Of a stretch of DNA of 50,710 nucleotides, positions 46,798-48,540 are shown piece after piece. Below the pieces are notes generated by a model. It saw only the letters and a program-made list of their open reading frames with translations, did not search any database and was not told where the DNA came from. Source of the stretch: a virus (lineage: Duplodnaviria > Heunggongvirae > Uroviricota > Caudoviricetes); IMG/VR virus record IMGVR_UViG_2877285697_000009; one strand, given 5' to 3'. A program made the position numbers and the translations under genes. Positions within the stretch are counted from its first letter, which is position 1. The number at the start of each line of letters is the position of its first letter.

Positions 46798-47522
46798 TTA
46801 ACGTATATTTTTTTTAATTTTTTTATTTTCCACCAGGTCCATAAACATTTTATTTAAATCTGACCTTTTACTTTCCTTGTCATCATCTTGAAGCTTAGGA
46901 TCAAAGTAACGTATTAAGCAGTTTTCAATAATTCTCCCCTCATTATCAACATCAATTTCATCCAGTAGAGAATTTGAAATATTAAAGACCACATTACATT
47001 TATTATTCAGAGATATAATCCTTGGATTAAATATACTAAAACAAACAAAAAAATCATTATCGTCATTTGAAACGCTATACAGCATCTTTGATAAGCCACG
47101 ATGAATAAAATCAACAGGGCGCCGATGCGGATGACGTGTATATCCTACGTAATGCACTTCTGTATGAATTCCTAAATCAATATAATGTCCGTTTACGAAA
47201 TCATGAACTGACATCACACATAAATTGCCATTTTGATATTCAATGTAGAGAAACTTCTCAGTTACTCTAACATTTGGAGTTACCTTCACTACCCCATTCT
47301 GCGTAAACGTGCAAAAGGAATATTTTATCCGAAGCTTTCGCTCTTCTTTGCCAATCAACAGAGTGAATACTATATTTTTTGTGAATGGGTTATACCTAGG
47401 CTGTTTCTTGGTTGAAAACCTCACTTTTTTTCTTGAACCTAAGAAATAAATAAATCTCTTTTCACAGCTTTCCCTCGTATATTTTTCCATAATTCTGAGA
47501 TAGTTCTTTATTATCTTATTTG
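46798..47522 (-). pseudogene. AT-rich cargo gene of unknown function, 3' portion (interrupted by IS1)
   Basis: Frame continues ...NKIIKNYLRIMEKYTRESCEK...HDFVNGHYIDLGIHTEVHYVGYTRHPHRRPVDFIHRG...NKKIKKNIR; the first about 57 codons of the ORF-track ORF are IS1 antisense sequence. Confidence 0.6.
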
Positions 47523-47577
47523 GGTAATGCTGCCAACTTACTGATTTAGTGTATGATGGTGATTTTAAGGTGCTTGC

Positions 47578-47853
47578 GTGGCTTCCATTTCCATCAGATG
47601 TCCTTCCTGCTCCGCTACTGAAGGCGTGGTGCGTAACGGCAAAAGCACTGCCGGACATCAGCGCTATCTCTGCTCTCATTGCCGTAAAACATGGCAACTA
47701 CAGTTCACTTACACCGCCTCTCAGCCCGGTACGCACCAGAAAATCATTGATATGGCCATGAATGGCGTCGGATGTCGCGCCAGTGCACGCATTATGGGCG
47801 TTGGCCTCAACACGGTTTTACGTCACTTAAAAAACTCAGGCCGCAGTCGGTAA
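47578..47853 (+). CDS. insA: IS1 InsA
   Basis: 91 aa [42 protein letters not shown]... Confidence 0.95.
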
Positions 47854-48275
47854 CCTCGCGCATACAACCGGGCAGTGATGTGATTGTCTGCGCTGAAATG
47901 GACGAACAGTGGGGCTACGTCGGTGCTAAATCACGTCAGCGCTGGTTGTTTTACGCGTATGACAGGATACGGAGGACGGTTGTGGCGCACGTCTTCGGTG
48001 AACGCACTCTGGCCACACTGGAGCGTCTTCTGAGCCTGCTGTCGGCCTTTGAGGTCGTGGTATGGATGACGGATGGCTGGCCGCTGTATGAATCACGCCT
48101 GAAGGGAAAGCTGCACGTTATCAGCAAGCGTTACACTCAGCGCATTGAGCGACATAATCTGAATCTGAGACAACATCTGGCAAGGCTGGGACGGAAGTCA
48201 CTGTCGTTCTCAAAATCGGTGGAGCTGCATGACAAGGTCATCGGGCATTATCTGAACATAAAACACTATCAGTAA
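47772..48275 (+). CDS. insB: IS1 InsB (transposase, expressed as InsAB' by -1 frameshift)
   Basis: 167-aa ORF overlapping insA in the -1 frame. Confidence 0.9.
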
Positions 48276-48290
48276 GTTGGAGTCATTACC

Positions 48291-48540
48291 TCTTATTTGT
48301 TCTTATATCATCAGGAGGATTAATTATCATATCATACCAAATACAATCGGTGTTAATGAGATCAATCCACAATGACTTATCGGCTTCTGAGAAAACCACG
48401 TTAGAGTTTATAAAATCAAAGTTTCCGCGAGTCATAAAACACTTCATCACATTAAAAATCACCTGCACATAATAAATTAAGTAGCAGAAGGTTCGCAAAC
48501 CCTTGCTTCTGTTTGTGCTATGATATTTTTCATAATTCAT
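48291..48540 (-). pseudogene. AT-rich cargo gene, 5' portion (N-terminal about 82 codons)
   Basis: MNYEKYHSTNRSKGLRTFCYLIYYVQVIFNVMKCFMTRGNFDFINSNVVFSEADKSLWIDLINTDCIWYDMIINPPDDIRTNK, joined in frame to the 3' portion when IS1 and one TSD copy are removed. Confidence 0.6.

Follow-up and report, generated by a model that had tools for sequence, protein, structure and literature searches.

The 50,710 nt viral DNA sequence IMGVR_UViG_2877285697_000009 (the window, meaning the whole stretch of DNA that was analysed) includes an AT-rich gene on the minus strand, directly after a tyrosine integrase gene, that is split by a copy of the insertion sequence (IS) IS1. The window copy of this cargo gene is a pseudogene with two lesions. 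We lean towards reading the locus as recently inactivated, single-gene prophage cargo, the intact product of which would be a divergent GIY-YIG endonuclease that cuts incoming phage DNA. The intact gene would encode a 342 amino acid (aa) cytoplasmic protein of the PHROGs family phrog_7779 with the nuclease as its central part, and the function would have been lost in the window through insertion of IS1 after codon 80 (codon 45 of the 342 aa form) and a +1 slip in a run of A8 that deletes the last 59 residues.

The IS in the cargo gene, IS1 copy 1 (bases 47523–48290, plus strand), is 768 bp long and contains insA (47578–47853) and insB' (47772–48275). Its open reading frames (ORFs) matched the Pfam families Zn_ribbon_InsA (E 5.9e-20), HTH_Tnp_IS1 (E 4.9e-30) and DDE_Tnp_IS1 (E 1.3e-74), and it is flanked by a 9 bp target-site duplication, TCTTATTTG, found at 47514–47522 and 48291–48299. 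It therefore has the length, the InsA protein and DDE transposase, and the 9 bp duplication of IS1. The DNA on either side of it was 31.6 % and 32.8 % G+C and the split gene 32 %, whereas the window has 52.2 % and the IS itself 52.0 %, which bears out the AT-rich flanks reported in the initial annotation.

In silico removal of IS1 and one copy of the repeat produced a minus-strand frame of 321 codons, running from an ATG at 48540 to a stop at 46798–46800. At the composition of the cargo gene, stop codons are expected at a frequency of about 0.076 per codon and the chance of 321 open codons is, by arithmetic, about 1e-11. Homologues also confirm this ORF as a genuine gene. The initial annotation had proposed that the excision restores a gene of about 323 codons. 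The continuous frame is indeed recovered, but the gene is not restored, as a +1 frameshift truncates it and the 3' boundary is wrong; the length is 321 codons as reconstructed and 342 or 377 codons in the native gene. A further frameshift in the reconstructed ORF, which the initial annotation had itself named as a finding that would count against its proposal, is thus present. Bases 46808–46815 of the window are a run of T8 (A8 on the coding strand), one T longer than the T7 of the intact alleles, and pairwise alignment with NZ_CP025328 included a single 1-base gap at this position.

The frameshift exchanges the final 59 residues for Asn-Ile-Arg-stop, so that the 3' in-frame fragment (46798–47522, minus strand) encodes residues 82–318 followed by NIR and the stop, and retains the GIY-YIG-like core. 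The lost 59 codons and the native stop (46629–46631) are found out of frame at 46629–46808 on the minus strand, and the translation of this orphaned tail (IYVNFQYERNNEHFCFYSKVVPPKFHHFFVLDFSDGKINIDRDQDMMTQMALCMGYYNY, followed by the stop) is that of the C-terminus of the intact alleles save for one Tyr to His substitution. It includes Ser336, His345 and Phe347, which are conserved in the family. As the lost codons are still open with one substitution, the slip is recent. With two independent inactivating lesions, the window copy is a doubly inactivated pseudogene. The ORF fused to IS1 contains the 293 aa Shigella dysenteriae protein WNT68051.1 as an exact substring, and S. dysenteriae is very probably the source of the window.

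Other decayed alleles were also found. The A-run near the 3' end seems to be prone to slippage, as WP_250143782.1 (285 aa) ends in ENKKLKNIR after a different slip there, and the allele in Shigella flexneri 2850-71 has a different frameshift located farther upstream (251 aa). The gene has decayed independently in these alleles.

The ancestral gene ends at 46629 and consists of 342 codons from Met36 (48435) or 377 codons from the upstream ATG at 48540. Met36 is the start in the PGAP model WP_225092812.1 and the start of the family alignment, and the 5' cargo fragment from this position (MTRGNF...) occupies 48300–48435 on the minus strand. The in-frame 35-codon upstream extension (48436–48540, minus strand) is missing from most family members and was modelled by AlphaFold2 as disordered, with a predicted local distance difference test score (pLDDT) below 50, and it is probably not part of the protein. 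It includes a hydrophobic stretch, LRTFCYLIYYVQVIFNVM, and its ATG, which is preceded by AGGGA about 9 nt upstream, is often the one chosen by gene callers. A membrane-anchored 377 aa form was considered and set aside because the hydrophobic N-terminal extension is not conserved.

Intact versions of the gene were found in Escherichia coli. The reconstructed cargo DNA matched 62 of 5426 complete E. coli genomes, as well as phage PhiR63_1, and in all but one of the 62 at least 80 % of the query was matched in a single stretch without interruption. Among the matches listed, the intact alleles were 99.7 % identical over their full length, and they are annotated as hypothetical proteins of 342 aa (WP_225092812.1, as in E. 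coli ExPEC XM) or 377 aa; the PhiR63_1 protein is XSB43253. In PHROGs, the reconstructed protein matched phrog_7779, a family of unknown function, with an E value of 9.2e-203, residues 36–318 aligning with positions 1–283 of the 342 in the profile; the unmatched end of the profile corresponds to the frameshifted tail. Scans against Pfam, NCBIfam and PADLOC gave no assignment and only a chance match to NNH2. The initial description of a product with no recognisable motifs thus holds for the library searches, phrog_7779 apart, but not for the protein as a whole, in which a divergent GIY-YIG motif is present.

At 90 % identity the family forms 46 clusters, and at 50 % it has about 215 representatives. 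Its members are approximately 300–350 aa long, show no fusions, are all named 'hypothetical', and are found in Enterobacterales, Burkholderiales, Campylobacterota and marine Gammaproteobacteria, with Robbsia, Arcobacter and Psychrobium among the genera, and in metagenomes. An AlphaFold2 model built from 43 sequences had a pLDDT of 84.4 and a predicted template modelling (TM) score of 0.82, the 35-residue upstream extension not being confident. Foldseek searches of the PDB and BFVD with this model detected no related structure (best E 0.06 and 0.036, respectively; TM <0.2), and sequence searches of the PDB with full-length and core profiles returned only chance matches (E at least 0.57). The N-terminal part (residues 36–175) includes a basic strand motif, K-R-F-I-Y-F-x-x-S-R-K-K-V-R-F, and has no likeness beyond that to small beta domains of a generic kind; this part is plausibly a nucleic-acid-binding or sensor module. 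PhiR63_1 is probably a member of the temperate-phage panel of Brenes & Laub 2025. Literature searches by phage name, protein accession and PHROG id found nothing, though that study may already have tested the gene, which limits any claim of novelty.

The best-conserved block of the family reads S-[IV]-[HY]-D-F...H-Y-V-G-x-T-x-x-P-x-x-R-P-x-x-x-x-H-x-G...D...N-S...E-G-x-I-I-E...Y-F-x-x-x-x-Q, and the nuclease-like core that contains it corresponds to residues 181–314 in the numbering of the 377 aa form (46822–47223, minus strand). The second motif, H-Y205-V-G207-x-T209...R215, fits the GIY-YIG superfamily, with the Tyr present in 71, the Gly in 75 and the Arg in 69 of 86 distant members, and the Tyr-x-Gly...Arg spacing is identical to that of T4 endonuclease II (EndoII) and I-TevI, as read from the T4 record. 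When the family was aligned with EndoII using hhalign, Y205, G207, T209, R215, E280 and Q292 were paired with Y47, G49, T51, R57, E118 and N130, respectively. E118 is the residue mutated in the EndoII crystal structure 2wsh, and by this alignment its counterpart is E280, which is conserved in 70 of the 86 distant members, while E275 is conserved in 67. The position of the EndoII Asn aligns with Q292, though N295 is an alternative, again judged from the alignment.

Two further observations point in the same direction. The score of the family against the EndoII family profile was 27.9, compared with 13.2 ± 2.5 (maximum 22.7) for 200 column-shuffled controls; the EndoII profile is shallow, because its homologue search gave only close relatives (at least 59 % identity). 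In addition, PF01541 was the only Pfam family to recur below threshold, in nine of the 86 distant members (best E 1.8e-4) and one of 43 close members, whereas the next-commonest was found in two distant members. The three PF01541 matches that were located fall on the YVG–Arg region.

Several features limit this assignment. None of the GIY-YIG lines of evidence reaches a curated threshold. The strand preceding YVG ends in [IV]-[HY]187-D-F, where 65 of the 86 distant members have His and 13 have Tyr, so that the usual Tyr of what would be the first GIY-YIG motif is mostly His; the YVG strand is preceded by an inserted helix, and the placement of this part by hhalign is uncertain. When core residues 176–315 were modelled alone the pLDDT was 65.5 with no confident fold, and for this reason the isolated-core model was left out of the fold search. 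An hhalign comparison with an alignment of I-TevI, SegA and SegF, taken from the T4 record, was also insignificant (E 0.2). Given the sub-threshold scores, the His in the first motif and the weak fold of the isolated core, remote GIY-YIG homology of the core is quite likely but not established.

Eleven distant members lack the Y-V-G/Arg motif, with sequences such as 'IYAVAAT' or 'VVAVECT' in its place, and yet have the [IV]-[HY]-D-F strand and the overall length. These may be catalytically dead or repurposed.

The location of the gene was then compared with that in related prophages. The window is a lambdoid prophage with early genes of the yfdP/yfdQ/yfdR type, and the same prophage adjoins yjjG in E. 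coli. An integrase at least 95 % identical to that of the window was found at the yjjG site in 700 genomes, and the cargo gene accompanies only those 61 alleles of the integrase with an identity of 99 % or more. In seven relatives with the integrase 95–97 % identical and the same yjjG-side site, the slot that immediately follows the stop codon of the integrase was examined. The slot held Dsr1 in O103:H2 PV16-126 (a full-length PADLOC match), a Borvo BovA gene broken into two ORFs in O121:H19 FWSEC0006, and an 868 aa HNH protein in EC01440. The remaining four contained unknown genes, of 413 aa in CE10, 183 aa in TUM1886, 150 and 160 aa in O145 RM9873-C1 and 331 aa in RIVM_C029670, and none of these unknown genes (150–413 aa) matched a PADLOC model. 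With Dsr1, Borvo, HNH or other cargo at this position in the sampled relatives, the integrase-proximal slot constitutes a defence hot spot. No description of a hot spot at the integrase end beside yjjG was found in searchable papers.

The neighbourhoods of 12 distant homologues were also sampled, and five were clear defence islands and one was rich in toxin–antitoxin genes; this is a sample and not an enrichment test. The Robbsia homologue lies between the BREX regulator BrxR with BilABCD and two reverse transcriptases, while that in Klebsiella adjoins a type I restriction-modification system, a reverse transcriptase and a McrA-like HNH gene. In Salmonella the homologue adjoins genes for a Dcm-type methylase, DUF4928 and Vsr in an integrative and conjugative element (ICE), and in Proteus it adjoins CTD6/MC2 conflict-system genes near smpB. 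The neighbours of one metagenome homologue are a methyltransferase-PLD-helicase fusion, an ATPase_2/DUF234 protein and DUF3375 (Wadjet-like), and a further homologue adjoins CcdAB and a PIN protein. The remaining neighbourhoods were uninformative. No conserved partner, methyltransferase, immunity or antitoxin gene was found in the 12 neighbourhoods. In the metagenomic island, a separate 366 aa protein with a weak GIY-YIG Pfam match is located 7 kb from the family member, adjoining an antitoxin-type gene (Xre_MbcA_ParS_C) and a DDE transposase.

The initial annotation had regarded the gene as foreign, integrase-proximal cargo, possibly with a role in defence, and this agrees with the finding of Dsr1, Borvo and HNH genes in the same slot and of distant homologues in defence islands. 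By association, a defence role for the intact protein is reasonably probable. The protein would act as a stand-alone, prophage-borne DNA endonuclease that shields the lysogen by cutting incoming phage DNA. Since the gene lacks any conserved partner, such as a methyltransferase or an immunity gene, discrimination between self and non-self would have to be intrinsic, residing in the non-catalytic N- and C-terminal parts. The mode of discrimination is speculative: either a feature of phage DNA might be recognised, as in CMoRE (PD-T4-3), or, in a variant of abortive infection, the protein might be held inactive until it meets a phage cue. A stronger version of this proposal, that the intact gene represents an unnamed single-protein defence family in which a GIY-YIG nuclease is licensed by novel N- and C-terminal domains and so brings a new form of phage-DNA discrimination, through modification specificity or a phage cue, can be put forward only tentatively.

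Three other explanations were considered. The product could be an abortive-infection toxin, that is, a GIY-YIG-type nuclease activated by a cue that degrades host and phage DNA indiscriminately and kills the infected cell, and we regard this as unlikely. It would fit with the lack of a partner gene or methyltransferase in the sampled neighbourhoods and with the presence in the same slot of Dsr1 and Borvo, single-gene systems described as acting via abortive infection or depletion of nicotinamide adenine dinucleotide (NAD), and the large non-catalytic parts seen in the model could serve as a sensor. However, there is no trigger, oligomerisation or NTPase module. Independent inactivation in Shigella lineages would suit a costly or toxic gene, but Shigella genomes decay generally and the loss of the gene is therefore not specific.

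It is improbable that the GIY-YIG likeness is convergent or vestigial and that the protein is a non-nuclease accessory factor, such as a DNA- or nucleotide-binding regulator or a lysogenic-conversion function. The limits set out above on the GIY-YIG assignment would suit this explanation, but four independent lines converge on the same residues, and the would-be catalytic positions (Y205, R215, E275 and E280, at the frequencies given above) are among the best conserved in the family. The shuffle control excludes an artefact of composition. A selfish, free-standing homing endonuclease of the T4 Seg or I-Tev type, cutting cognate sites in related phages with no role in host defence, is very unlikely, for although GIY-YIG enzymes are classic phage homing endonucleases and the gene is patchy among close prophages (present in 62 genomes, while 700 have the integrase family), the nuclease core occupies a central rather than an N-terminal position, no Pfam match besides GIY-YIG recurred in the members scanned and so no known DNA-binding module was detected, the comparison with I-TevI, SegA and SegF was insignificant, the homologues in unrelated bacteria belong to an ICE and to chromosomal defence islands and do not lie in or next to conserved phage genes, and the slot takes unrelated cargo of very different sizes, which is the behaviour of a hot spot rather than of homing to one site.

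The integrase gene of the window is also disrupted. IS1 copy 2 (48879–49646, plus strand) splits it into a 3' fragment (48699–48878, minus strand) and a 5' fragment (49655–50710, minus strand), whose start codon is formed by the last three bases of the window, and is flanked by an 8 bp duplication, GTAAGATC, at 48871–48878 and 49647–49654. When the fragments were joined the integrase was 411 aa with Arm-DNA-bind_3, Phage_int_M and Phage_integrase domains. The two IS1 copies differ by one base (T against C at IS position 424), are in like orientation and are 588 bp apart. As each has kept its own duplication, they arose from independent insertions, with no recombination between the copies. With its integrase split by IS1, the prophage is probably locked in place. 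The loss of the cargo gene and of the integrase is ordinary decay of the type seen in Shigella, through IS1 insertion and homopolymer slippage.

On the far side of the cargo slot is a 64 aa ORF (46225–46419, plus strand) with sub-threshold matches to HTH_17, MerR and HTH_23 over residues 4–24. The initial annotation had called this neighbour AlpA-like, but with the matches sub-threshold and none of those listed belonging to an AlpA family, it is best described as a small Xis/AlpA-type helix-turn-helix (HTH) ORF. It overlaps a 121 aa antisense ORF (region 46173–46538), and both are left unannotated by PGAP in E. coli ExPEC XM. The record for PhiR63_1 has a 121 aa hypothetical coding sequence at an apparently corresponding place, judged by position and not by sequence. 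The 64 aa excisionase-type ORF was favoured over the antisense ORF because of its HTH matches. Beyond it, the early-left genes (44702–46190) encode YfdQ (DUF2303, E 1e-92) and YfdR, an HD-type 5'-deoxynucleotidase with a weak YfbR-like match. The yfdR-like DNA was found in 2990 of the 5426 E. coli genomes and the homology stops exactly at the yfdR stop codon, which therefore marks a module boundary.

The interest of the locus lies in the intact family, an unannotated, single-gene defence candidate that is probably nuclease-based, while the window copy itself reflects ordinary decay. Should the intact protein prove to be an active nuclease that provides defence on its own, a family of about 215 clusters (50 % identity) would be added that Pfam, NCBIfam and PADLOC 2023 miss. 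A defence hot spot was also mapped beside yjjG, at the integrase-bearing end of prophages that belong to a common E. coli/Shigella family, and the uncharacterised slot genes of 150–413 aa are further defence candidates.

This hot spot resembles those of P2/P4-type prophages and satellites in having constant flanks, here the integrase and the early genes, around swappable cargo that includes the validated systems Dsr1 and Borvo. It differs in belonging to a yfdPQR-type family of lambdoid prophages beside yjjG, in which it lies at the integrase end. A resemblance to CP4-57 of E. coli K-12, where the order is intA, yfjH (318 aa, opposite strand) and alpA, had been suggested in the initial annotation. 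The layout is indeed alike, with a tyrosine integrase, an AT-rich gene of about 320–340 codons on the strand opposite a small HTH gene, and then the Xis/AlpA-type HTH gene itself, but YfjH was rejected as a homologue of the cargo protein (hhalign E 0.33, probability 0.2 %; BLASTP E 0.11 over 10 residues). The two elements also differ in type and site, CP4-57 being a P4-like island at ssrA and the window a lambdoid prophage next to yjjG.

T4 EndoII (DenA; PDB 2wsh), which belongs to the GIY-YIG superfamily, is among the closest known systems to the core. SNIPE is a single-protein GIY-YIG defence that acts by direct cleavage of incoming DNA and was studied against lambda-like temperate phages (PMC13190303). 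It combines a transmembrane helix with DUF4041 and a nuclease domain at the C-terminus, and the architecture of the present family is different: DUF4041 was not matched in any of the 129 members scanned with Pfam, and the proteins start at Met36 with no conserved hydrophobic N-terminus, the sole hydrophobic segment being in the non-conserved extension that is probably untranslated. CMoRE/PD-T4-3 (PDB 9u75) is a type IV, modification-dependent GIY-YIG enzyme (PMC12923530) in which an N-terminal nuclease with a GIYxY-YIG motif is joined to a C-terminal modification sensor. In the present family the core is central and the first motif is [IV]-[HY], with no GIYxY, and PADLOC scans of the query and 86 members gave no match to the PD-T4-3 models or to any other family. 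The sensor parts of the family have no close solved structural relative and, like CMoRE, could offer useful substrate specificity. The family is distinct from CMoRE, SNIPE and homing endonucleases.

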